A stretch of DNA of 64,000 nucleotides from Terriglobia bacterium (GCA_963748015.1 CAVVHE010000008.1:801285-865284); one strand, 5' to 3'; shown: positions 41,703 to 59,495, counted from the stretch's first letter. Notes: generated by a model not told the origin, from the sequence alone. Numbers and translations are program-made.

Positions 41703-43226
41703 TTAACGGACGAGGGGAACCCTGATGCGCTGTCCGGGTCGGAGGATGGCCCGCTCGGTGATCTGGTTGATTCCGAGGAGGTCGCTCACGGTGACGCCGT
41801 AGCTCGTGGCGATCTTGAACAGCGTTTCCCCGCGGCGCACCACGTGGACGATCACGCTGAGGGCGGCGTCGGCGGCGCTGGAGGCGGAGGTGCGCGCGGC
41901 GGCCGCCGGGGCCGGCGATTCCGCCGCGGGCCGGGACGCCACCGGGACGGCGGCGGGCTGGACCGAGGGCGGGGCCGCGAGCCGGGCGAGCGTTCCCGCG
42001 GGGAGCCACACCGAGGTGCCGGCGGGGAGCGCCTGACCGCCGCGAACGGCGCGTTGCGTCCATGCCGGGTTCATCGCGGCGAGATCGTCGAGTCGCATGC
42101 CGTAGACCCGCGCCACCTGGGCCGGCGGCGTCCGCTGCTCGAGAACGAACCGGTCCTGGGAGAGCGGCGGCTCGTACCGGATGCCCTCGGGGAAGAAGCG
42201 AACGGGATCCCGCGCGATCTCACGCGCGGCCAGGAACTCGGGGTAGAAGTTCCGGGAGGCGAAGCCGAAGGTCTTTCCGTCGTACTCGCGCACGATCCGG
42301 CCGAAGTCGGTCCCGTAACGCCGCTTCGCCCGGGCCATGCCTTCCACGCCGTGGTTGTACGAGGTGATCGCGAGGGGCCAGTCCTGCAGGATCTCGTGGG
42401 ATTCCTTGAGATATCTCGCCGCACCGCGGGCGGCGGCGACCGGGTCGAGCCTCTCGTCGATCGCCGAGCCGTAGAGCATGAACTTCCGGGCAGCCGGCCG
42501 GGTGAATTGCCAGATCCCCACGGCGCCTGCGGAAGAGCGGGCGGAGGCCTGGAACGAAGACTCGACGTGCGGCAGGAACGCGAGGTCCTCCGGAAGCCCG
42601 AATTCGCGGAAGGCCTGGCGGAACTCGGTGTCGTAACGGCCGCTGATCTCGAGCCCGCGACGGAAGCGCTCCCGGAGCCCGCGCTGCGAGCGTACCCGCC
42701 GGTGGGCGCCCTGGATCGAGGCGATCCCCGCGGTCGTCGTGATCTTGAGGGCGAGTTCCTTTTCCGGGTCGCTCAGCTCGGCCCTCGCGGCGATCTTCCG
42801 CTCCATCACGGAGAGCGCGGTCTCGAGGCTCCGCTTCCGGGACCGGACGAGCTCTCGCTGCACCGCGGTGTAGGCCTCTCCCGGCTCCCCGGGCAGCCGC
42901 ACGATCTCGTAGACGAGAGAGGGATGGTCCGTGTCGTGCAGCGCGACCTCGCCGAGGCTCCACGTCGCGAAGACGTTCTGCCAGAACTCCACCTGCTCCC
43001 GGATCTCCGGAGCCATCGGAAAGGTCTCCGGCCGTTCGACGGGGCCGGCGGCCGGGGCCGCCGCCTGCGGGGTGGAGGGCGGCTCCTGGGCCTCGAGCAC
43101 GGAGAACGCCGCGAGGAGCACCAGCAACGACAGCCTCGTGACCGTTTTCCCCGCGATGGGCACCGGATGCCTCCCTGCATCGATCGAGCGCAATCGGAAT
43201 ATAGGCCCGACGCGGAGCGGCTTCAA
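41703..43226 (-). CDS. Lytic transglycosylase (SLT domain) with C-terminal LysM (MltD-like)
   Basis: SLT core ES.F...A.S.AGAVGIWQF (VESSFQASARSSAGAVGIWQFTRPAARKF), AARYLKE..., LysM HVVRRGETLFKIATSYGVTVSDLLGINQI. The exact start is uncertain. Confidence 0.85.
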   Translation of the reverse strand: MKPLRVGPIFRLRSIDAGRHPVPIAGKTVTRLSLLVLLAAFSVLEAQEPPSTPQAAAPAAGPVERPETFPMAPEIREQVEFWQNVFATWSLGEVALHDTDHPSLVYEIVRLPGEPGEAYTAVQRELVRSRKRSLETALSVMERKIAARAELSDPEKELALKITTTAGIASIQGAHRRVRSQRGLRERFRRGLEISGRYDTEFRQAFREFGLPEDLAFLPHVESSFQASARSSAGAVGIWQFTRPAARKFMLYGSAIDERLDPVAAARGAARYLKESHEILQDWPLAITSYNHGVEGMARAKRRYGTDFGRIVREYDGKTFGFASRNFYPEFLAAREIARDPVRFFPEGIRYEPPLSQDRFVLEQRTPPAQVARVYGMRLDDLAAMNPAWTQRAVRGGQALPAGTSVWLPAGTLARLAAPPSVQPAAVPVASRPAAESPAPAAAARTSASSAADAALSVIVHVVRRGETLFKIATSYGVTVSDLLGINQITERAILRPGQRIRVPLVR

Positions 43227-43315: not shown

Positions 43316-44494
43316 ATGATTCGTGCGGGTGTCGGAATCTCCACGAGGTCCGGGTCCGCAGGGGCCGCCAGGGAGGCGGCGGACGAGGCGATCGCCGGCC
43401 TCGGCGGCGAGCGCGCCGACTGGTGCGTCGCGTTCGCCACCATGCACCACGCCCTCGCGATCGACGAGGCCCTCGACGCGCTGAGCGCGGCGTCCGGAAC
43501 GCCCTACATCGCCGGCTGTTCGGGTGCGGGCGTCCTGGCCGGCGGTCGGGAGATCGAAGGCGGGGCAGCGCTCGGCGTCCTCGCCGTGACGTCGGACCGG
43601 CTGCGCGCGACACCGTTCCTGTTTCCCGACGAGGGAGATCACGGCCTCACCGCCGGCAAGAGGCTCGGCGAGCGGCTCGTCGCCTCTCGCGGGACCGACG
43701 ACCTGGTCCTCGCCTGGCCCGACGCGCTTCACGTCCGACCCGACCGCCTTCTGAGAGGATTCGACACCATCCTCAAGGGCGTTCCCGTGGTGGGGGGCGC
43801 GGCGGCGGGAGGCGGGCCGCAAGACAAGACCCTCCAGTTCTGCGGGGGCGAGGCGACCAGCGGCGCCGTCTCCGGCGTGCGGCTCGGCGGAGAGTTCCGG
43901 CATCACGTCGCCGTGACCCAGGGGTGCCGGCCGCTGGGCGGACCGCTCGAGGTCACGGATGCCCACGAGAATCTCATCCTGGAGATCGACGGCCGTCCGG
44001 CGATGCAGGTGCTGCGCGAGGTCGCTCCCGAGGGAATCCTCGAGCGGCAGGAGTCCGCTTTCAACTACCTGTTCGTCGGCCTGGTGCCCGATCCGGCGGA
44101 GGAAGGGGTGCGATCGGGGGAGTACCTGATCCGCAACATCCTCGCGGCGGACGATGACACCGGCGTGATCGGCATCTCGGAGGAAGTGGAGGAGGGGCAG
44201 CGCCTCGTTTTCGCCCTCAGGGAAGGGGTCGCCGCGCGCCGGGACCTCGAGCGCGTGCTGGACGGCCTCGTCGCCGAAGCGGATCCGGACCGCTTCCGCT
44301 TCGGGCTGTACTTCAACTGTCTCTCCCGGGGTAGGTCGCTTTACCGCGAGGACGGGATCGACACCGCCCTCCTCGCGCGCGCGCTCCCCGGCGTCCCGCT
44401 CCTCGGGTTCTTCTGCAACGCGGAGATCGCGCCGCTTCGCGGCGTGAACCACCTCTTCACGTACACCGGGGTGCTCGTCCTGGTCGGGGAATAG
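43316..44494 (+). CDS. FIST N/C domain signal-transduction protein
   Basis: 392 aa. ...ADWCVAFATMHH..., GCSGAGVLAGGREIEG..., FGLYFNCLSRGRSLY..., GFFCNAEIAP are FIST_N/FIST_C hallmarks. Confidence 0.8.
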   Translation: MIRAGVGISTRSGSAGAAREAADEAIAGLGGERADWCVAFATMHHALAIDEALDALSAASGTPYIAGCSGAGVLAGGREIEGGAALGVLAVTSDRLRATPFLFPDEGDHGLTAGKRLGERLVASRGTDDLVLAWPDALHVRPDRLLRGFDTILKGVPVVGGAAAGGGPQDKTLQFCGGEATSGAVSGVRLGGEFRHHVAVTQGCRPLGGPLEVTDAHENLILEIDGRPAMQVLREVAPEGILERQESAFNYLFVGLVPDPAEEGVRSGEYLIRNILAADDDTGVIGISEEVEEGQRLVFALREGVAARRDLERVLDGLVAEADPDRFRFGLYFNCLSRGRSLYREDGIDTALLARALPGVPLLGFFCNAEIAPLRGVNHLFTYTGVLVLVGE

Positions 44495-47894: not shown

Positions 47895-48931
47895 TCGCGC
47901 CGTCGCGATCCGGCGACCATCGCTACCGATCCTCCCAGAAAACTGACCCCATAGAACGTTCCGCGGTGGAGGAGTGTCGCCGCCGCCGCGGCCTCGGCAG
48001 GAATCCCTAGCTTCGCGTACAGCCCGATCAGCGCCACCTCCGTCGCGCCGATGCCTCCGACCGCCCCGGTCATCGTTCCGACGAACGAGGCGAGCAAGAG
48101 GACGGCCGCGACCTCGAAGAGGGGCGCGCTGACGCCGAGCGCGCGGAACACCATCGCGTTGGCGAGGCAAAGCGCGAAGCGGGATGCCGCGGCGAGCGCG
48201 ATGTCCCCGGCGGCGCCGCCCCAGGCGGAGCCGGTGCGGAGGAGCGGCGCCGTCATCGGCTCTAGCCATTCGGCCGACGCTCCGTCCGGGCCAACCTGGC
48301 GGAACTTGGCGGGCGTGATCCGGGCGACCGCTCTCGCCACGCCGGGCCGGAGGATTCCCTTCGAGATTCTGTCCCGAAGCAGGAGAAACAGCACCGCGAG
48401 CAACAACGCGGCGGTACCCGAGAGAAGAACCGCCCGGTTGCCGGCCGAGGCCGGCATCTCGAGCGAGATCGCCACGGCGAGTAGCCCGCCGAGGGCGAGG
48501 CTACCGAGGAAATTCGTGACCTGGTCCGCCAGCGACCAGCCGTAGGCGGACGCCATTCGCCAGCCGGTGCTGCGCTGGACGATCACGGCCCGGAGCACCC
48601 CCCCCGCCAGGTTCGCCGAAGGGGTCACGAGGTTCACGAACGTGCCGGAAAGAACCGCGCGCAGGGTGGTGCCGAATCCGATCTCCCCGGCGCGACGCAT
48701 CATCCGCCACCACTTCGCCGCCCAGATCAGGTACCTCACCCCGATCGCCGCCAGCGAGAGGGTTAGCCATGTGGGGTCGGCAGCGAGAGCCACGTCGAGA
48801 ACCCGCCGCGGTCCGATGGAGTGGACGCTCCACCCGACCAAGAGCACGCAGGCAGCGAGCATGAGAACCCGCAGCGCGAGCGCCGGCACGCGGCCTCGCG
48901 GGAGTCCCGGAAGCGGCAAGCCGCCGGTCAC
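47834..48931 (-). CDS. Flippase-like / LPG-synthase-TM (UPF0104) family membrane protein
   Basis: C-terminal part of the composite 1007-aa track ORF. Start placed at GTG 48931, overlapping the ClC TGA (GTGA). About 8 TM helices. IRYLIWAAKWWRMM..., FVNLVTPSANLAGGVLR..., GAVGGIGATEVAL. Confidence 0.7.
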   Translation of the reverse strand: MTGGLPLPGLPRGRVPALALRVLMLAACVLLVGWSVHSIGPRRVLDVALAADPTWLTLSLAAIGVRYLIWAAKWWRMMRRAGEIGFGTTLRAVLSGTFVNLVTPSANLAGGVLRAVIVQRSTGWRMASAYGWSLADQVTNFLGSLALGGLLAVAISLEMPASAGNRAVLLSGTAALLLAVLFLLLRDRISKGILRPGVARAVARITPAKFRQVGPDGASAEWLEPMTAPLLRTGSAWGGAAGDIALAAASRFALCLANAMVFRALGVSAPLFEVAAVLLLASFVGTMTGAVGGIGATEVALIGLYAKLGIPAEAAAAATLLHRGTFYGVSFLGGSVAMVAGSRRRDYDEPTLRREPPPAMSPPPL

Positions 48932-50981
48932 GGCCGCGGCTCGAGCGCCTCGAAGGCGCCGGCCGGACCCAGGAGCACCAGCTTGTCCCCCTCGCGAACC
49001 ACCAGGTCGGGAGGGGCGGGAGAGATCTCGACGGCGCGGTCCCCGTCGCGACGCTTCACCGCGAGGACGTAGAGGCCGAGCGTGTGGTACGGGTCGGACT
49101 CGATGAGCGACCGTCCGACGAAATAGGGCGGGGCAGGCCGCTCCTCGATGAGCAGGTCGCCCGCGCGCCGCGCGCCGGCATCCTCCCCGGAGACGCTTCC
49201 TCCGAGATACTGCGCGAGCACGAGCCTCCGGCGGAGGACCTCGCGGTCGAGCGCCTGCACGACGTCCCGCCGGGCCACGCTCCCCACCAGCCGGTCGGGC
49301 TCTTTCTCGTCCACCACGGGCAGCTGCGCCAGCTCCAGCTGGGAGAACCGCCGCATGACCTCGTCGAGCGGGGTTCGCTTCGTGACCCGGGGGACGTCGC
49401 GGACCAGGTCGAGCGCCACGAGGCTCTCCCGCAGGTGAGGCTCGCCCGCTACCTGGAAGGCGTCCCGGAGGTCGATCGCCCCGCGGAGGCGGTCGCCGGC
49501 GTCCAGAACGTAGATCGCCGTCGTCCGGCTCTCGGTGAATCGGTCGACCACTTCGCCCATCGGGGTGTCGGCGCGCACGGTCAGCGGGTTCGAGCGGATG
49601 AAATCCTCCGCGCGGAGAGAGACCAGCGCCATCTGCTCGAAGGCGAGATCGAAATCGACTCCGCGCTTCCTCAGCGCCTCGGTGTAGATCGAATCGCGCC
49701 GCATCATGCGCGAGAGCGCGGTAGCCGTCACCACCGTGACGGCCAGAGGCATCACCGCACCGTAGTCCTGGCACATCTCGAAGACCATGATCAACGCGGT
49801 GATCGGAGCGAACGTGGTGGACGCGATCGCCGCGGCCATGCCGCCCAGCGTGTAGTAGACCGTCTGCACGTGAAGCCCCGGGATCGCGGCCTGGGTGCCG
49901 GCGGCGAACAGCGCGCCGCCGGCGGCGCCGACGAGCAGGGTGGGGGTGAAGACTCCCCCGGAGCCGCCGGAGCCGATCGATGCGGCGGTGGCGACGATCT
50001 TCGCGAGCAGGAGCGGCAGCAGGACCGCGGGGAGCAAGCTGCCCATCAGAACCTCGCCGACCGCGTCGTACCCGTTCCCCCAGACCTCGGGGATCCACCA
50101 CGCGAGGAGGCCGACCGCCAGCCCGCCGAGACCGGTACGCGCCCACACCGGCAAGGGCACCCGCCGGAAGATCCGCTCGGACGATTCGATGCTCGACCGC
50201 AGGAGCAGCGCGACGACGGGAATCAGCGCCCCGAGCAGCGCAAAGAGCGGCAGCGACAGGAGCCCCGGCGCCTGCCCCGGCGCGACCGGATACAGGGGAG
50301 CCGCGCCGAACACCCCGCGCGAGAGGAGCGTCGCGGTGACCGACGCGACGACCACGGGGCCGAAGATGTCGAGGGCGAAGTTGCCGTGGATGACCTCCAT
50401 CACGAAGAGGGCGGCGCCGATCGGCGCGTTGTAGGCGGCGGCCATTCCCGACGGCGACGCCGCAGCCGATCAGGATCCGACGCCGCTCGGCCGGGACCCG
50501 CAGCGCCTCCCGAGCCGCGACGCGGCGGCGGCGCCGATCTGCACGATCGGGCCCTCGCGCCCCACCGAGCCGCCGAGTCGCGTTGAGGAGCACCGACGCG
50601 AGCGACTTTCCGAGAGTCCGCCCGAGGCGGAGACGCCGGGCGCCGCGCAGGGAGACGGCCTCCATGATCTCGGACGTTCCCTCGCCCCCGCTCCCTCCCT
50701 TGACGAGGTACCGGGAGAGCAGTCCCGCCGCGAGACCGCCCAGAGCCGGCGCGACGAGGATCATCGGGAGCTTGAGGCCGCGCGCGACGTCGAGCGAGCT
50801 GCCGCTCTTGCCGAACGCCAGGAACTGGATCGCGAGGCCGCCGAAGCGGACGAGCACCGCTCGCGAGCGCGCCCAAGAATCCGACGCTCAGCACCAGGGC
50901 GATCGCGTACGCGCGCTCGTTGGTGCGGAACCGGCGCTGGATCGCCTGGAACCAGCGGCCCAGCCTCGCGAAACGGATCAT
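48928..50981 (-). pseudogene. ClC chloride channel / H+-Cl- exchanger with two CBS domains and a TrkA-C-like domain, interrupted by four frameshifts in the 5' quarter
   Basis: The N-terminus is spread over three frames. It reads MIRFARLGRWFQAIQRRFRTNERAYAIALVLSVGFLGALA (from 50981), then VLVRFGGLAIQFLAFGKSG...GGEGTSEIMEAVSLRG...LGKSLASVLLNA, then LGGSVGREGPIVQIGAAAASRLG, then EALRVPAERRRILIGCGVAVG, then MAAAYNAPIGAALFVMEV... (505-aa ORF 48928..50445). All ClC signature blocks (G-x-G-x-x-E, GREGP, GGVFTP) are intact at the amino-acid level. Confidence 0.75.
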
Positions 50982-52955: not shown

Positions 52956-54251
52956 TCAACTTTCTTCCGGCGGGCGTTCGATTGGAACGGGCGGAGGCGG
53001 GTCAGGAGGCATCGCGTCCGGCAAGGGCGCCCCGCCGCCCGCCGGAGGCGGCCCGGCGGGCGTCACGGCCGCCGCCCTTCTCGCCCGCCTCCAGTCGCGC
53101 GTCCCCAGGACCATCGCGCCGAGACCGAGGAACGCGCAGGCGAACCAGAGGATCCAGCCGAGGGTCGGTATCGCGAACAGCACGTACAGCGCGATGGTTC
53201 CGGCGGCGAATGCGACGTACTGCGACGGCTCGGGCCGACCGAGCTTCAGGAACAGCCAGCGCCCCGCCGCGACGGCAACCGGCACCTTGGCGAGGTACAC
53301 GGCGAGCGCGTACAGGAGGAGCACGGCCAGCGCGAGCGGGATCGTGACGATCAGGATGCACGAAAGGACCGCCGCCACCGGAACGACGATGAAGGCCAGG
53401 AACCCGACGCCGAGGTTCCGGAGCACGTCGCCCCGGGTTGCCGCCAGGACGGCCTCCCCGGGTTTCCGCGCCAGCGCGAGCGCGCCCAATCCGGTGAGCA
53501 GGCCCAGCAGGAGCGAGGTGAACCACCAGGCGAAGCCGCCGACGAACGAGCGCCGGTTCTCCATGCGGACGTGATTCCTTACTTCTCGCTCGACCCGGCC
53601 TTGAACCATGCGCTGCACGTCCTCGGGCACCGGGACGCGCGACTGGTGGGACAGGTTGCCGGCGATCTTGGCCTTCTCGTCGATCTTGACGACATCGGCC
53701 TCGAGCGACGCGTCCTTCCCGACGGTCCCCGAAAGCTCGATCTGGCCGCCCTGCGCGGAGAGGTCGCCGCCGATCGCGCCGTGGAGACCGATCTGCCCCG
53801 CATAGACGTCGACGTCCCCGCCGATGGTCGAGCCGGAGCGCGCCTCCACCGTCCCGCACTTCGCGTCGAAGTCCTTCCCCACGCTTCCCGCGATGACGCA
53901 CTCCGCCCCTTTCGCGTCCACCTCGCCCGTCACCTTGCCGGTGACCGTCACGTTGTTGCCGATGAACTTGACGTTCCCGGTGACCTCGCCGGAGACGTCG
54001 AGAGTCCCTCCGAACACCCAGAGGTTGCCATCCTGCTTTCCGGCGATCGTCACGGTCGCCTTGAACAGCTTGAGGTTTCCGTGGTGGGTCTTGCCGGCGG
54101 GAAGCGTGTAGTTCCCTCCGAGATCGGAGAACCCGGGGTCGTCCTGGGGCCTGGCGGCGAGCGGCAGCGCCAGGATCCCCGCCAGAAGGACGCCCGCCGT
54201 CCACACGGTAGCGCGTCGCAATCGCCGTCCGGCTATCCGTTGTCTGGCCAT
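52956..54251 (-). CDS. Membrane-anchored polymer-forming (bactofilin-like beta-helix repeat) protein with C-terminal 4-5 TM domain
   Basis: 431 aa. The N-terminal signal/anchor is followed by repetitive G(N/D/E)(L/V)...GG beta-helix turns (VSGEVTGNVKFIGNNVTVTGKVTGEVDAKGAECVIAGSVGKDFDAKCGTVE...). Then comes a polytopic hydrophobic domain and a Pro-rich tail. Confidence 0.7.
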   Translation of the reverse strand: MARQRIAGRRLRRATVWTAGVLLAGILALPLAARPQDDPGFSDLGGNYTLPAGKTHHGNLKLFKATVTIAGKQDGNLWVFGGTLDVSGEVTGNVKFIGNNVTVTGKVTGEVDAKGAECVIAGSVGKDFDAKCGTVEARSGSTIGGDVDVYAGQIGLHGAIGGDLSAQGGQIELSGTVGKDASLEADVVKIDEKAKIAGNLSHQSRVPVPEDVQRMVQGRVEREVRNHVRMENRRSFVGGFAWWFTSLLLGLLTGLGALALARKPGEAVLAATRGDVLRNLGVGFLAFIVVPVAAVLSCILIVTIPLALAVLLLYALAVYLAKVPVAVAAGRWLFLKLGRPEPSQYVAFAAGTIALYVLFAIPTLGWILWFACAFLGLGAMVLGTRDWRRARRAAAVTPAGPPPAGGGAPLPDAMPPDPPPPVPIERPPEES

Positions 54252-54480
54252 GGTCCTGTCCTCCCGATGACAGTGTTGGGGCGGTTCCGCGCCGTCGTCA
54301 ATGGCTCAGGCGGCCGGCGGTCGGATTCCGCGGGTGAGCGGTCGTCACCACCCGGCCGCCGGGACCTCGAATTCGGCCGGAACGGGCCAGCCTCGGCTTG
54401 CTCGTCCTCGGGAGCAAGCATCCTCGGCGGCTCGAAATGCCGCCTGCGGAGGCTTGCACCCTCGTCCTCGCGATGGACAG

Positions 54481-55278
54481 CTACCAGGGGATGAGCTCGC
54501 GGAGGCGGCGGGCCTGGCGGCGGGAGAGGGGCACGGTGCTGCGCGCGGCGTCGCGGATCACGATGCGGAAGGTGCCGGCGTCGCCCGGGAGGATCTCGGC
54601 GATCGTCGAGAGGTTGACGAGGTACGCGCGGTGCGTGCGGAAGAACGACGGGCCGAGGAGGCTCTCGAGCTCGGCGAGCGGGCGCTCGACGAGGAATCGT
54701 CCCTCGGCGGTGCGGGCGAAGACGAGGACGTCCTCGGCCTCGAACCAGAACACGTCGGCGGGGTCGAGGAGCACGATCTTCGCGCCCCGTCGCCCCGGGA
54801 TCTTGAGCGGTCCCGCTTCGCGGGGAGGTGGGGGCGGCGCCGCGGCCTGCTCGGGGCGGGGGAGCCCGGCGCGAATCTCCTCGAGGACCCGGAGCAGGTC
54901 GGAGGTGGGAGGTTCCTGCTGGCGAAGCGCCTCGCGCGCGCGATCGAGGGCCGCGGCGAAGCGGCGGCGGTCGAACGGCTTCAGCAGGTAGTCGAGGGAG
55001 TTGACCTCGAACGCGCGCACGGCATATTGATCGAACGCGGTCGTGAAGATGACGCGCGGCACGTGCTTCGCGCGGCGCAGGACCTCGAAACCGTCGGCCT
55101 CGGGCATCTGCACGTCCAGGAAGCAAAGCTCCGGCCGCTCGCGATCGAGCAGGGCCACGGCGGAGGGTCCGTCCGCCGCCTCGCCGACCACGGCGACGTC
55201 CGGGTGGTCCGCGAGCAGGCGGCGGACCCGGTCGCGCGCCGGCTTCTCGTCGTCGACGATGACGGCGCGGATCTTCAT
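54481..55278 (-). CDS. LytR/AlgR-family response regulator (REC + LytTR)
   Basis: Track ORF 54481..55419. Start ATG 55278 (MKIRAVIVDDEKPARDRV..., phospho-acceptor context CFLDVQMPEADG). LytTR C-terminus (...FFRTHRAYLVNL...). Its ATG overlaps the kinase TGA (ATGA). Confidence 0.9.
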   Translation of the reverse strand: MKIRAVIVDDEKPARDRVRRLLADHPDVAVVGEAADGPSAVALLDRERPELCFLDVQMPEADGFEVLRRAKHVPRVIFTTAFDQYAVRAFEVNSLDYLLKPFDRRRFAAALDRAREALRQQEPPTSDLLRVLEEIRAGLPRPEQAAAPPPPPREAGPLKIPGRRGAKIVLLDPADVFWFEAEDVLVFARTAEGRFLVERPLAELESLLGPSFFRTHRAYLVNLSTIAEILPGDAGTFRIVIRDAARSTVPLSRRQARRLRELIPW

Positions 55279-56402
55279 CGGGCAGCGGCCTCCTGCAGGC
55301 CGACCGCCGGCGGGAGGCCGGCCGCGGTCCTCGGAGAGGCGGGCATCGTGACCCTCGCGATCGTTCCGCGCCCGCCGGGTCCCGCGTGGAGGTCGAGCGA
55401 CGCGCTTCCGAGGTAGCACGCGGCGAGCCGCTGGCTCACGTTCGACAGCCCGTGTCCTTCGCGGAGAAGGGCCGGGCCGGCGTCGCGGAGCCCGGCGCCG
55501 TCATCCTCGACCTCGACCGAGAGCGTTCCGTCGCGGACGGCCGCCCGGATGACCACCGTCCCGCCGGAGCGGACCGGCGCGATGCCGTGGCCGACCGCGT
55601 TCTCGACCAAGGGCTGCAGGACGAGGCCGGGGAGGCGCGCCGCCCGCGCTTCGGGCTCGACCTCCCAGACGACCCGGAGGCGGTCGCCGAAGCGCGCGCG
55701 CTCGATGTCGAGATAACCGGCGACGAACTCCAGCTCGTCGGAGAGGGGAACGGGCCCCGCGTCGGCGACCCGGAACGTGTAGCGGAACAGGTCGGCGAGC
55801 GTCTGGACCACCTCGTCCGCCTTGTCCGGGTCCTCTTCGAGGAGCGACGAGATCGTGTTGAGCGTGTTGAAGAAGAAGTGCGGGTTGATCCGCGCCTGCA
55901 GGGCCGAAAGCTCGGCGCGGGCCGCTGCCTCCTTGAGCCGGGCCTCCACGAGGCGGACCTCCTCGACCTCGCGCAGCGTCTCCTCGAGCCGCCACCGCAG
56001 CGTGTCGTAGGCGTGCACCATCCCGCCGACCACCAGCGCGAGGAGGCCGTTGATCGCCCCGATCGCGAGCGTCTGGCGCAGGTCCCGCAGGACGAAAAGC
56101 GGGAAGAAGTACAGGACCACCGCGGTGCCGGCAATGGAGCCGGAAAGGAGCGCCAGCCCCAGCAGCGCGACCCGCGAGGCCGGGGCGAGACCGCGCAGCC
56201 GCGGGAACAGGAAGACCGATGCGATCAGCACCGTGAAGCCGACGACGTTGCCGAACAGGATGCTGATCCAGAGGAGCGTCGGCTCGAATCCCCCCGCGCG
56301 GAACGCGCCGACCGCCAGTCCGGTCGCGGTGCCGGCCGCGGTGTTGCTCGCGGCCCAGAGAAGGACCTGCAGGGCGGGGGGAAAGCCGTCCCGGCGCGTC
56401 AT
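55275..56402 (-). CDS. LytS/YehU-type sensor histidine kinase (membrane sensor + His_kinase + HATPase_c)
   Basis: C-terminal 375 aa of track ORF 55275..57527. ATG 56402 overlaps the PP2C TGA (ATGA). Motifs: H-box LQARINPHFFFNTLNTI, N-box LVLQPLVENAVGHG, G-box VEDDGAGL...GHGLSNV. The N-terminal ~150 aa are polytopic. Confidence 0.88.
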   Translation of the reverse strand: MTRRDGFPPALQVLLWAASNTAAGTATGLAVGAFRAGGFEPTLLWISILFGNVVGFTVLIASVFLFPRLRGLAPASRVALLGLALLSGSIAGTAVVLYFFPLFVLRDLRQTLAIGAINGLLALVVGGMVHAYDTLRWRLEETLREVEEVRLVEARLKEAAARAELSALQARINPHFFFNTLNTISSLLEEDPDKADEVVQTLADLFRYTFRVADAGPVPLSDELEFVAGYLDIERARFGDRLRVVWEVEPEARAARLPGLVLQPLVENAVGHGIAPVRSGGTVVIRAAVRDGTLSVEVEDDGAGLRDAGPALLREGHGLSNVSQRLAACYLGSASLDLHAGPGGRGTIARVTMPASPRTAAGLPPAVGLQEAAAR

Positions 56403-57682
56403 GTGGCGCGGGCGAGGACCAGCGTGACGTCGTCGTGGGGGGAGCGCCCGCCGCGCCAGCGGGTCACCTCGTCGAGGACGGTCCCGACGATTTCCTCGAG
56501 ATTGCGCTCGCGGTGGTCGGCGAGTATGCCGACAAGCCTCTCCTCGCCGAACTCCTGATCCTCCGAGTTCGGGGACTCGATGACCCCGTCGGTGAACAGC
56601 GCGAGGAGGTCCCCCTCCTGCAGGACGCACTGCCCCTCGCCATAGCGCGCTTCCCCGAGGAGGCCGATCGGGAGCCCGCCGTCGGTCAGGCGCGTGGTGC
56701 CGTTCTTGCCGAGGATCAGGGGAGGGAAGTGCCCGGCATTGCTGTACGTGAGCGTCCGGGACAGGCCGTTGTAGTGGCCGAAGAACATCGTCGCGTAGCG
56801 CGCGGCCGAGGTGGATCGAAGGAGCAGCTCGTTCAGGCGGCGCATGATCTCGCTCGGGCCGAGCGCCGGCAGCGCGATGCTCCGGACCGAGGCCTGCAGC
56901 CCGGCCATCAGGAGCGCCGCGGGGATTCCCTTCCCGGAGACGTCGGCGATGACGAGGCCCACGCGATCCTCGGCGAACGGCAGGAAATCGTAGAGATCTC
57001 CCCCCACGCCGACCGCCGGCAGGCACGCCCCGGCAAGCTGCAGCCCCCGCACTTGAGGGACGGAGCGCGGGAGGAGCTCTCGCTGCACCTCGCGCGCGAT
57101 GGCGAGCTCGCGCTCCATGGCCTCCTTCTCGCGCAGGACGCGGTACGACTCCTCGATCTGCCGGCGCATCGAGTCGTAGGTGTGCAGCGCGATCCCGACG
57201 ATCACCGCGAACGCCGCGTTGAGCAGTACGAGCACCGCGACGGTCTTCGGCCGCGCGAGGGAGTACAGGGGCTGGGACGCCAGGATCGCGACCGAGCCGA
57301 ACACGGTGCCGGACAGCAGCGTGAGTACCTGGAGGGCGATGCGAACCGCGAACGGAAGCCGGGCATAGTACGGGAAAACGAGGCGCGCGGACGCCAGCGA
57401 GGTGAACCCTACGACCTCGGCGAACAGCACGCTTTGACGAAGGAGCGGGAAGAAGTCGGGCGCGCCGCGGGTGTACGCGATCCCCGCGCCCACCACCGCG
57501 CCGATCGCGGCCCACCCCACGGCCCATGCCACGAGGAATCGGTAAGGAGATGCCCCGGCCGGCTCGAGGCCGGTCGCGGCGAGCGCCGAGGACACGAGGC
57601 TCGACGGCTTCTCCGCGCCGGAGGAGCCGGGGAGCGCTTGAGCCGCCTCGGTCATGCGATTCTCCCTGACGCCGGTCTCCAC
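56399..57682 (-). CDS. PP2C-family (SpoIIE-like) Ser/Thr phosphatase with N-terminal polytopic membrane domain
   Basis: 427 aa with a GTG start (alternative ATG 57655). PP2C blocks: VGGDLYDF, VIADVSGKGIPAALLMA, LFTDGVIES, DDVTLV. Confidence 0.88.
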   Translation of the reverse strand: METGVRENRMTEAAQALPGSSGAEKPSSLVSSALAATGLEPAGASPYRFLVAWAVGWAAIGAVVGAGIAYTRGAPDFFPLLRQSVLFAEVVGFTSLASARLVFPYYARLPFAVRIALQVLTLLSGTVFGSVAILASQPLYSLARPKTVAVLVLLNAAFAVIVGIALHTYDSMRRQIEESYRVLREKEAMERELAIAREVQRELLPRSVPQVRGLQLAGACLPAVGVGGDLYDFLPFAEDRVGLVIADVSGKGIPAALLMAGLQASVRSIALPALGPSEIMRRLNELLLRSTSAARYATMFFGHYNGLSRTLTYSNAGHFPPLILGKNGTTRLTDGGLPIGLLGEARYGEGQCVLQEGDLLALFTDGVIESPNSEDQEFGEERLVGILADHRERNLEEIVGTVLDEVTRWRGGRSPHDDVTLVLARAT

Positions 57683-57862: not shown

Positions 57863-58573
57863 CTAGTTCAGCCCGGAGCCGCCCTCCTCGGGAGTGCGAA
57901 GCGCCTTGAGGCGAAGGACGCGCTCGAGGATCTCGTCGAGCATCCCCGACGCGCGCCGCTGCCGGGCGAACAGGTCGTCCTCCTCGAGGAGCGATTGCCG
58001 CTTCGCGGGGTCCACGGGGAGGTTCGCGCAGGCGCCGTTGACCGCGGTCTCGAAGGGAATCCGCTCGTCCAGCACCGCACCCCCCTCGGGGCGGTCGGCC
58101 AGCTCGCGAATCAGGCAACCGTGGGAGGCGAGGAGGGACAGCTTAGCGGAGCGGACTTCCGGGTCTGCGTCGTCCACGGGGGACTCCGCCAGGGGACGCA
58201 CGCGGACCAGCCGGTACGGGGCGGACCGGACGACCTCCCCGAAGCGGACCCGCTGCAGGCCGACGAGGCGTAGATTGAACTTCCCTCCGGGGAGGGGCTC
58301 GAGGTCCTCGATCCGGCCGACGGTGCCGGTGTCGTGGAACGAGGGACTCCCCGCGTAGTCCTCCTCCCAGCCCGGCCTCAAGAGCGCGATCGCGATCAGC
58401 CCTTCGCCGGCCGTCGCGTCCCGGACCATCGTCCGGTAGCGCGGTTCGAAGACGTGGAGGGGAAGGACCGTCCGGGGGAACAAGACGACGCCGGGGAGCG
58501 GAAAGACGGGCACGACTCCGGATGCGGAGACGCACTCGGGCTCGGACCGGGCGGGGTGCCGCGAACCCTTCAT
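57863..58573 (-). CDS. LON N-terminal substrate-binding domain protein (no ATPase/protease domains)
   Basis: 236 aa. VPVFPLPGVVLFPRTVLPLHVFEPRYRTMV is the LON-N signature. Confidence 0.85.
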   Translation of the reverse strand: MKGSRHPARSEPECVSASGVVPVFPLPGVVLFPRTVLPLHVFEPRYRTMVRDATAGEGLIAIALLRPGWEEDYAGSPSFHDTGTVGRIEDLEPLPGGKFNLRLVGLQRVRFGEVVRSAPYRLVRVRPLAESPVDDADPEVRSAKLSLLASHGCLIRELADRPEGGAVLDERIPFETAVNGACANLPVDPAKRQSLLEEDDLFARQRRASGMLDEILERVLRLKALRTPEEGGSGLN

Positions 58574-58580
58574 GCCGGGA

Positions 58581-59495
58581 TCATATCTCTTGGGGCTTGC
58601 GCGCGATGATGCCCGAGACGGCGCGTGCGGGACGGCCGGGAACGGCCGGCTCGACCTCCTCGCGCAGGCGCAGGATCTCCCAGTCGTCGAACACCCGCTT
58701 CAGCTCTCCCGGTTTCAACAGGTGGGCGGGGTTCGCCGGCCGGCCGAAACGCGGTTGCTCGGTCGTGAAGGTCTGGTACACGACGACGCCGCCGGGCTTG
58801 AGACCGTCGCGGATGTCGTTGAACAGGGGGCGATGGAGGTAGTTGAACACCGCGACGACGTCGTAGGTCTCGAGGGGGATGATGTAGGTCCCGTCCTCGA
58901 CGTTTCCCACGATGCCTCGGATCGGCGCGCCGAGCTTGCGCGCGGCCGTCCGGGCCCGCCGGACCGCGTCGGGGTCCACGTCCACGCCGTCCACGTCGAA
59001 GCCGCGCGTCGCGAGGTAGATCGCGTTGCGCCCCTCGCCCATCGCGATGTCGAGCGCGAGTCCCTTCGGGAGAAGCTGGAAGTTCTCGATCAGGAACCGC
59101 TCCGGAGCGATCGGGTGAACCTGCCGCCCGTTTCCCTCCATGCCCGTGGCGACGGGGCCGGGCCAAGCCTCGATCCCGCCCTCTAGGTTGAACAGCGACC
59201 GCAGGCCCTGCTCCGCGAGGAACTGGCAGGCCGACGCGGAGCGGATCCCGTACTCGCAGACGACCGCGACCGGGACGCCGCTGTTCGGCACCTCGCTCGC
59301 GCGGGTGTCGAGCTCCTGCAGCGGGATCAGGACGGAGCCGGGGATGTGCTTCGCCTCGAACTCGGTCTCGGTTCGCACGTCGAGAACAGCCAGGGACTCG
59401 CCCATCGCGAGCTTCCGGTAGAGCTCGTCTCCCCCGATGGCTTCCCAGCGCGAATCACGAGACAACGTCGGCACCCCCGAAACGTCCGCCTGCAA
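58581..59495 (-). CDS. Rhodanese domain fused to a class I SAM-dependent methyltransferase (TehB-like)
   Basis: Rhodanese: LAVLDVRTETEFEAKHIPGSVLIP ... the active-site loop VVCEYGIRSA ... LEGGIEAW. MTase: ALDIAMGEGRNAIYLATRGFDVDGVDVD ..., LKPGGVVV. The start is uncertain (TTG 59495 or GTG 59474). Confidence 0.75.
   Translation of the reverse strand: MQADVSGVPTLSRDSRWEAIGGDELYRKLAMGESLAVLDVRTETEFEAKHIPGSVLIPLQELDTRASEVPNSGVPVAVVCEYGIRSASACQFLAEQGLRSLFNLEGGIEAWPGPVATGMEGNGRQVHPIAPERFLIENFQLLPKGLALDIAMGEGRNAIYLATRGFDVDGVDVDPDAVRRARTAARKLGAPIRGIVGNVEDGTYIIPLETYDVVAVFNYLHRPLFNDIRDGLKPGGVVVYQTFTTEQPRFGRPANPAHLLKPGELKRVFDDWEILRLREEVEPAVPGRPARAVSGIIARKPQEI

Follow-up and report, generated by a model that had tools for sequence, protein, structure and literature searches.

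LytTR systems with direct-repeat sites are well known. All LytS-like kinases have a 5TMR-LYT membrane input, usually followed by a GAF domain (PMC10653868). It is well established that histidine kinases, PPM phosphatases, and diguanylate cyclases exchange sensors through helical linkers (PMC1592074, PMC12143880), and how one type of sensor controls both histidine kinases and PPM phosphatases has been called a mystery (PMC12143880). Here, we describe a locus in which paralogous copies of one membrane domain are carried by a phosphatase and by a kinase encoded next to each other. It is on the minus strand of a 64,000-nucleotide stretch of DNA from Terriglobia bacterium (GCA_963748015.1 CAVVHE010000008.1:801285-865284; the window, in whose coordinates all positions are given) and comprises, in order, genes for a PP2C phosphatase, a histidine kinase, a REC-LytTR regulator, and, after a gap of 229 bp (54252-54480), a beta-helix membrane protein (the fourth gene). 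Gene coordinates and order are as an earlier sequence-only reading of the window had given them, and Pfam domain content agrees for the three enzymes. We lean modestly toward a model in which one cue is received by paired sensors, with a kinase–regulator branch leading to the fourth gene and a phosphatase branch leading to an unlinked phosphoprotein. The features on which this model draws are as follows.

56399..57682, minus strand: membrane-anchored PP2C (SpoIIE/RsbU-type PPM), 427 amino acids (aa) from GTG; Pfam SpoIIE, E=9.5e-53
57113..57541, minus strand: four-transmembrane (4-TM) sensor and juxtamembrane signaling helix of the phosphatase, aa ∼48-190, with an invariant Glu89 in TM2; AlphaFold2 (AF2) predicted local distance difference test (pLDDT) 88.7
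56405..56971, minus strand: PP2C catalytic domain, residues 238-426; Pfam PF07228
55275..56402, minus strand: histidine kinase, 375 aa, start overlapping the PP2C stop; PF06580 and HATPase_c
55953..56375, minus strand: paralogous 4-TM sensor and signaling helix of the kinase, aa ∼10-150, with an invariant Asn52; 36% identity to the PP2C N-terminal domain
54481..55278, minus strand: REC-LytTR response regulator, 265 aa, start overlapping the kinase stop; Pfam Response_reg and LytTR
54396..54444, minus strand: two GC-rich hairpins 3' of the regulator stop codon, specific to the window; folding compared with shuffles
54314..54343, minus strand: direct repeat GACCGCTCA-N12-GACCGCCGG, 21-bp period, putative site of the LytTR regulator; RACCRY pair in orthologous gaps
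54272..54301, minus strand: promoter-like TTGACG-N18-AACACT, 12 nt downstream of the repeat; read from the sequence
54259-54265, minus strand: Shine-Dalgarno sequence GGGAGGA of the fourth gene; read from the sequence
52956..54251, minus strand: fourth protein, 431 aa, with an N-in signal anchor, a beta-solenoid (aa ∼47-203), a five-helix DUF8173 domain, and a Pro-rich tail; AF2 pLDDT 83.8

The G+C content of the region is ∼70%, and reading frames were confirmed by GC at third positions. Both upstream junctions are literal ATGA overlaps of start and stop codons, seen directly in the sequence. The phosphatase and kinase genes overlap at 56399-56402 (read GCC ACA TGA CGC), and the kinase and regulator genes at 55275-55278 (read CCC GAT GAA G). 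Such overlaps point to translational coupling rather than to equal amounts, and the "stoichiometric" coupling in the sequence-only reading goes too far. The kinase and phosphatase are probably co-transcribed and translationally coupled.

Paralogous sensors on a phosphatase and a kinase

The N-terminal domains of the phosphatase and kinase are homologous, as had been noticed from the sequence. Identity is 36% across 142 aa with two one-residue gaps (composition-adjusted BLASTP, E=1e-15). When the TM region was compared alone, the Smith-Waterman score was 158, relative to 37.6 ± 7.0 in 2000 shuffles (maximum 73, z=17), and unrelated TM domains from the same window scored only 29-47. An alignment of 95 domains is almost without gaps, with invariant Trp, Gly, and Pro and near-invariant Ser, Phe, Val-Val-Gly, Gly, Gly, Pro, Asn, Tyr, and Arg. 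The adjusted E-value, the shuffles, the scores of unrelated TM domains, and the near-ungapped alignment rule out that the similarity is merely a compositional artifact of TM segments.

The AF2 model of the phosphatase sensor, built from a 42-sequence alignment (pLDDT 88.7, predicted template modeling score 0.73), has four TM helices connected by loops of ∼4 residues. The fourth extends as one 50-residue helix toward the catalytic domain. Because there are four helices and the output is cytoplasmic, both termini of the sensor are predicted to be cytoplasmic, with almost no periplasmic exposure. The near absence of periplasmic loops and the continuous helix into the catalytic part suggest an intramembrane-type sensor.

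The domain is without an assigned family. Searches with isolated N-terminal domains returned no Pfam or NCBIfam family at E≤10, save two sub-threshold DUF matches, and in Pfam the sensor is a member of neither the 7TMR-DISM nor the 5TMR-LYT families; for the latter, there was no match even at E≤10 with either the isolated N-terminal domains or the whole kinase. The best Foldseek match of the sensor model in the PDB had an E-value of only 0.14, with nothing <0.1. A profile search of 1.84 billion representative proteins yielded just 81 matches at E≤0.001. Among the full-length matches that are classifiable, all outputs are either PP2C domains or PF06580 kinase cores. One 434-aa protein, P0040, has the end of a PP2C domain joined to a kinase-type sensor and kinase core and probably results from read-through of the overlapping genes rather than from a true fusion.

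The arrangement of the four genes is strongly conserved. A scan of one genome per species identified 47 loci in 46 genomes, to which three metagenome loci were added. Nearly all loci are labeled Acidobacteriota (Polarisedimenticolia, Vicinamibacterales, and subdivision-22 strain Mor1). In 43 of 43 loci of sufficient length, genes for the PP2C, kinase, regulator, and beta-helix protein follow each other in this order on one strand; the remaining seven are incomplete and all end at a contig edge. Four-nucleotide overlaps are the commonest state at both junctions, and the gap before the fourth gene is 89-655 bp in all loci. The triad of signaling genes is thus conserved in related genomes and chance adjacency of the four genes is ruled out. 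Because flanking genes differ between lineages, the four appear to be an autonomous module. Three typical modules are in metagenome-assembled genomes (MAGs) labeled Cryosericum, Verrucomicrobiia, and Dongiaceae (L019, L021, and L047); these are probably mis-binned Acidobacteriota contigs rather than transfers. In another MAG (L048:6319-11343), each module gene is split into several tblastn pieces, reflecting either an assembly indel error or a decaying operon.

A neighbor-joining tree separates phosphatase-borne from kinase-borne sensors as two reciprocally monophyletic clades, and the distance matrices of the two clades correlate (r=0.94). This pattern implies that the duplication of the sensor predates the split of the classes and that the pair has been co-inherited since. 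Distant variants include a solo sensor-PP2C (L051), a kinase–regulator pair without a PP2C (L054), kinase, regulator, and beta-helix protein genes with no PP2C within 318 bp upstream (L055 and L056), and another PP2C–kinase pair (L057). Judging from L055 and L056, the trio of kinase, regulator, and target probably came first and was later joined by the phosphatase. In L054 (740-4715), the kinase–regulator pair is directly 3' of genes for an Amidase_2 peptidoglycan amidase and a PBP4-type carboxypeptidase (Peptidase_S13), a neighborhood that hints at a cell-wall context.

The two clades differ at one buried position in TM2. It is Glu in 45 of 45 operon phosphatases (FAEVVGF) and Asn in 46 of 46 kinases (FGNVVGF); in the window, the codons are at 57416-57418 (PP2C Glu89) and 56247-56249 (kinase Asn52). 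Among distant relatives, the residue is Asn in the solo phosphatase L051 and Glu in the paired phosphatase L057. Such a pattern would fit a heterotypic contact, and hence a single heteromeric kinase–phosphatase receptor built from the paralogous 4-TM domains, possibly with the DUF8173 protein. One conformational change would drive both outputs reciprocally, or the phosphatase copy would be a membrane modulator or decoy of the kinase. The invariable adjacency of the two genes, mostly with a 4-nt overlap, and the co-inheritance of the sensors are also consistent with such a receptor. We nonetheless consider it unlikely, as both types of output are normally homodimers (PMC12143880), the paralogs are ∼33% identical and in well separated clades, as expected if they were insulated after duplication, and kinase-only (L054 and L055) and phosphatase-only (L051) variants exist. 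An obligate version, an intramembrane receptor in which the Glu/Asn pair of TM2 is a contact or a proton- or ion-sensing site and the DUF8173 protein is a third subunit, strikes us as quite unlikely. If true, one envelope signal would flip His-Asp and Ser/Thr signaling together, through a dual-output complex of a kind that has not been described.

Output domains of the phosphatase and the kinase

We return to the model in which paired sensors feed two separate branches. The SpoIIE-family PP2C domain of the phosphatase (aa 238-426; Pfam, E=9.5e-53) has the intact metal-binding aspartates of PF07228, and the metal-binding motifs GGD..D, DVSGKG, TDG, and DD are kept in 43 orthologs. Its closest solved relatives are the Pseudomonas aeruginosa REC-PP2C RssB-like protein (3eq2), Mycobacterium tuberculosis Rv1364c, and SpoIIE, all of which are partner-switching-type PPMs. 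The reading frame opens with GTG 57682, and an alternative, ATG 57655, is preceded by a Shine-Dalgarno sequence (AGGGAGA). The first ∼45 residues vary among orthologs, and ATG 57655 rather than GTG 57682 may be the true start. In a Vicinamibacterales-like contig of 947 kb (L001:8846-10123), an insertion sequence element (Transposase_mut) interrupts the PP2C gene, whereas the genes for the kinase, regulator, and fourth protein are intact; this locus is a natural phosphatase disruptant.

The kinase core consists of His_kinase PF06580 (Pfam, E=2.6e-27) and HATPase_c (E=3.4e-7), and the His box NPHFFFNT and the N and G boxes are kept in 40 orthologs. The label "LytS-type" in the sequence-only reading is apt for the PF06580 core but not for the input, where Pfam finds neither 5TMR-LYT nor GAF. 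Because 5TMR-LYT is absent, the kinase is not a LytS in the strict sense. In the regulator, REC (Pfam, E=9.5e-22) is followed by LytTR (E=2.1e-21), and the acidic pocket, Asp54, and Lys100 are kept across ∼40 orthologs. Its best NCBIfam match is BtsR (E=8.5e-49), with 166 bits versus an equivalog cut-off of 246. Judged by their motifs, the phosphatase, kinase, and regulator look active. The phosphatase and kinase had been described as carrying out opposing chemistries, a term that holds only loosely, as the kinase and phosphatase very probably act on different substrates.

The fourth gene and its putative control region

The gap before the fourth gene has a direct repeat, GACCGCTCA-cccgcggaatcc-GACCGCCGG (54314-54343, period 21 bp), in intergenic DNA that is otherwise unalignable. 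The repeat is of the type ACCGCTCA with a 21-bp period, is BtsR/YehT-like, and is just upstream of the -35 element of the fourth gene. A search of 54252-54480 for LytTR-type direct repeats, which the sequence-only reading had proposed, thus found one that is conserved in 24 of 40 orthologous gaps. This count is for a strict RACCRY pair at 20-21 bp, compared to 0.19 intergenic regions in dinucleotide shuffles (maximum 2). Among RACCRY pairs with spacings ≤45 bp, 24 of 32 fall at 20-21 bp, and in most loci, the second repeat ends ∼60 nt 5' of the start codon. Density of the repeat pair in the gap is 109-fold that of the remaining 1 Mb of locus sequence; the 64-kb window has just two other matches. 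The repeat is kept among regulators that are 53-86% identical, inside unalignable DNA, which argues for a function. Autoregulation of the operon through the same repeat was considered and rejected, as just one of 39 loci has such a pair 5' of the PP2C gene and the window has none there.

The YehT/BtsR motif, reportedly described by Kraxenberger in 2012, is ACC[G/A]CT[C/T]A with a 13-bp spacer, and the first half-site of the window repeat matches it perfectly. An oligonucleotide of the Escherichia coli YehT site at yjiY contains ACCGCTTA-N13-ACCACTCA (PMC4847170), which the window repeat also matches. Downstream of the window repeat, the promoter-like sequence is kept as TTGACG-N18-A(A/C)NNNT in the closest relatives (L004-L006), with C as the fifth base in three of the four. 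Consensus promoter and terminator scans of the gap returned nothing, and TTGACG-N18-AACACT was not among the scanner matches.

Two stem-loops had also been reported in the gap. Both are present, and their folding in the window is moderately better than that of shuffled sequence (z=-2.6 or -1.4, according to the segment chosen). Relatives do not share them, however, with a mean z of -0.39 across 22 loci, and the gaps of the closest relatives are only 127-130 nt. A conserved terminator or attenuator was rejected because folding is not kept in relatives and the terminator scan was empty.

Because a conserved LytTR-type repeat precedes its promoter, the fourth gene is the likely output of the regulator, in keeping with the earlier suggestion that it is a target of the system. 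In the AF2 model of its product (pLDDT 83.8), a helix at the N-terminus is followed by a beta-solenoid (residues 47-203, pLDDT >90) and then by a helical membrane domain (236-396). The solenoid superposes on the Thermus thermophilus bactofilin 6rib_A (probability 1.00, template modeling score 0.84 by target length, root-mean-square deviation 2.2 Å); for the whole model, the Foldseek E-value against 6rib_A is 0.77. The curated Pfam cut-off for Bactofilin (PF04519) is passed by seven of eight orthologs. The window protein itself has no Pfam match at all, even at E≤10, though orthologs that are 64-67% identical pass Bactofilin; this may be an effect of the HMMER filter. Precomputed Pfam annotations assign DUF8173 (PF26514) to P0107, which is 96% identical, and to the majority of 57 homologs, and a local Pfam copy returned it for no ortholog. 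A literature search on DUF8173 yielded nothing.

The N-terminus of the fourth protein has six Arg before the first helix, and all predicted cytoplasmic loops are positively charged. Some homologs have an N-terminal cytoplasmic zf-HC2 anti-sigma domain, and their genes directly follow that of an extracytoplasmic function (ECF) sigma factor. The N-in anchor, the Arg and charge pattern, and the zf-HC2 domain of homologs predict that the beta-helix is periplasmic. The protein is thus bactofilin-like in fold, as had been suggested, but probably not a cytoskeletal polymer; its description as "polymer-forming" is doubtful given the predicted location. The Pro-rich tail, the only Ser/Thr-rich cytoplasmic candidate, is not conserved. 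In L059 (1576-3857), the gene of a zf-HC2-bearing homolog overlaps the end of an ECF sigma-factor gene, an arrangement suggesting that the Bactofilin and DUF8173 module also serves as an anti-sigma factor. By domain content, the module appears to recur as the extracytoplasmic half of envelope-signaling proteins. DUF8173 proteins also occur alone (L058).

These features raise the possibility, which we regard as doubtful though deserving of attention, that the fourth protein is mainly a co-sensor. Its beta-helix would detect an envelope cue that the DUF8173 helices relay to the 4-TM domains, as LiaF does to LiaS, and the repeat would provide feedback only. The sensors are nearly without periplasmic surface and in this resemble intramembrane-sensing kinases that need accessory proteins (LiaF, PMC3543457). 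That the module is elsewhere the extracytoplasmic half of an ECF anti-sigma factor and that the fourth gene is always adjacent are also consistent with co-sensing. On the other hand, the fourth gene is 89-655 bp away and has a promoter and a regulator site to itself, as target genes usually do, and DUF8173 proteins need not accompany such a system, as in L058. A co-sensing role is compatible with, and does not exclude, the fourth gene being the target of the kinase–regulator branch. Likeness to the logic of LiaG/YvlB, to which the sequence-only reading had appealed, stays an analogy.

Proposed parallel outputs and comparison with known systems

In the model toward which we lean, both enzymes would read one membrane or envelope cue through their paralogous intramembrane sensors and continuous signaling helices. 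The kinase would phosphorylate the REC-LytTR regulator, which is predicted to bind the BtsR-like repeat (ACCGCTCA) just upstream of the -35 element and to activate the fourth gene. The product of this gene would combine a periplasmic bactofilin-like beta-helix with a DUF8173 membrane domain. As a second, parallel output, the phosphatase would dephosphorylate a Ser/Thr phosphoprotein whose gene is elsewhere; family precedent suggests a STAS-type partner-switching protein.

Several points weigh against this model. The two sensors may not share a cue or a direction of response, and the fully fixed Glu/Asn difference in TM2 may reflect a divergence in the signals to which they respond. Sixteen of 40 intergenic regions lack the strict repeat pattern, and several of these show degenerate, unscored versions such as GGCCGCTCA. 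Repeat counts are inflated by kinship, as many loci are of related Vicinamibacterales, and the core of the repeat is GC-rich in a genome with 70% GC. Last, no STAS protein or RsbW/SpoIIAB-type kinase is encoded in the operon, in the open reading frames (ORFs) scanned at 40-64 kb, or in conserved flanking genes, which bears out and extends the earlier observation that the PP2C has no STAS partner. With no linked substrate found, the second output follows solely from family precedent. A conserved fifth flanking gene was considered as a possible substrate, and none is common to the classes (by crude gene calling).

The lack of an external substrate encoded nearby can also be read to mean that the phosphatase acts within the operon, where it would take Ser/Thr phosphate off one of its three partners (kinase, regulator, or fourth protein) and thereby tune the His-Asp output. 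Ser/Thr phosphorylation of response regulators is known in Firmicutes, and operon coupling would hold enzyme and substrate together. Nevertheless, the module encodes no Ser/Thr kinase, the closest solved relatives of the PP2C act in partner switching, the sole Ser/Thr-rich cytoplasmic candidate (the Pro-rich tail) varies among orthologs, and in some lineages the core of kinase, regulator, and fourth gene functions with no PP2C. We view this intra-operon role as very unlikely and prefer an unlinked phosphoprotein as the substrate.

The locus offers a matched natural pair, in which a kinase and a phosphatase of the same cell are each driven by a copy of one small, confidently modeled 4-TM sensor and helix. 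As a resource, it comes with ∼45 orthologous pairs, the promoter of the fourth gene as a probable transcriptional read-out, and a locus in which the phosphatase is naturally disrupted. It also reveals an undescribed membrane input domain that is restricted to Acidobacteriota, here those of soil and sediment; signaling in this phylum is almost unstudied. Uncharacterized DUF8173/bactofilin-like membrane proteins are also tied to envelope signaling, the partner being a LytTR system in this locus and ECF sigma factors in others.

The operon is flanked upstream by a gene for a stand-alone Lon N-terminal-domain protein and downstream by genes for an EamA transporter and a LOG-like protein, all unrelated to the module and not conserved with it. 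The gene for the Lon substrate-binding domain protein, which is without a protease or ATPase part, is on the same strand 180 bp upstream of the operon (57863-58573). Next to it, a gene at 58581-59495 encodes a fusion of rhodanese and a TehB-like S-adenosylmethionine methyltransferase and is also upstream of the module in the closest relatives. Farther away, an SLT and LysM lytic transglycosylase gene (41703-43226, minus strand) adjoins one for a FIST_N/FIST_C sensory protein (43316-44494, plus strand). The gene at 48928-50445 encodes a ClC-type channel that also has two CBS domains and TrkA_C; its true start is predicted to be upstream of this ORF call because the Pfam match begins at profile position 99.

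Among described systems, BtsS/BtsR (YehU/YehT) and other LytS/LytTR systems have in common with the locus a kinase with a PF06580 DHp domain and HATPase_c, a REC-LytTR regulator, and overlapping kinase and regulator genes. As in BtsS/BtsR, a single adjacent target gene is behind a YehT-type direct repeat with a period of ∼21 bp, the regulator site being putative here. The locus differs from BtsS/BtsR in that an unrelated 4-TM domain replaces 5TMR-LYT and GAF, the regulator scores too low for the BtsR equivalog, the target gene encodes a beta-helix membrane protein instead of a transporter, and a PP2C that shares the sensor is coupled upstream. Relative to RsbU/RsbP/SpoIIE-type PPMs, whose N-terminal sensors are exchangeable in the model of the Bradshaw lab (PMC12143880), the phosphatase is similar in having a SpoIIE-family PP2C joined to an N-terminal sensor by a continuous helix, and relative to 7TMR-DISM/5TMR-LYT receptors, the locus is similar in having one TM module fused to alternative intracellular outputs, histidine kinases included. 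Unlike those PPMs and 7TMR-DISM receptors, it has a new 4-TM sensor whose kinase and phosphatase copies are side by side and co-inherited, and unlike the PPMs, linked STAS/RsbW partner-switching genes were not found in the operon, the ORFs scanned at 40-64 kb, or conserved flanks.

Similarities extend to LiaFSR/VraTSR, which also have a TM-helix sensor with minimal loops and an adjacent gene for a membrane protein with a beta-rich extracytoplasmic domain; by analogy, a role in envelope stress is plausible. However, the locus has PF06580 and not HisKA_3, LytTR and not NarL, and no LiaF-type (DUF2154) domain, and its accessory gene is downstream with its own promoter and has no sequence relation to LiaF/LiaG. 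The fourth protein has a predicted periplasmic beta-helix and DUF8173 module homologous to that of ECF anti-sigma factors composed of zf-HC2, Bactofilin, and DUF8173, but it is without zf-HC2 and is paired with a two-component system rather than an ECF sigma factor. Because sensor sharing and LytTR direct repeats are already established, the locus does not represent a new category. Within the literature searched, what is new is the 4-TM family, the co-inherited and coupled pairing of two outputs, the link to a DUF8173/bactofilin-like protein, and the Glu/Asn switch in TM2.

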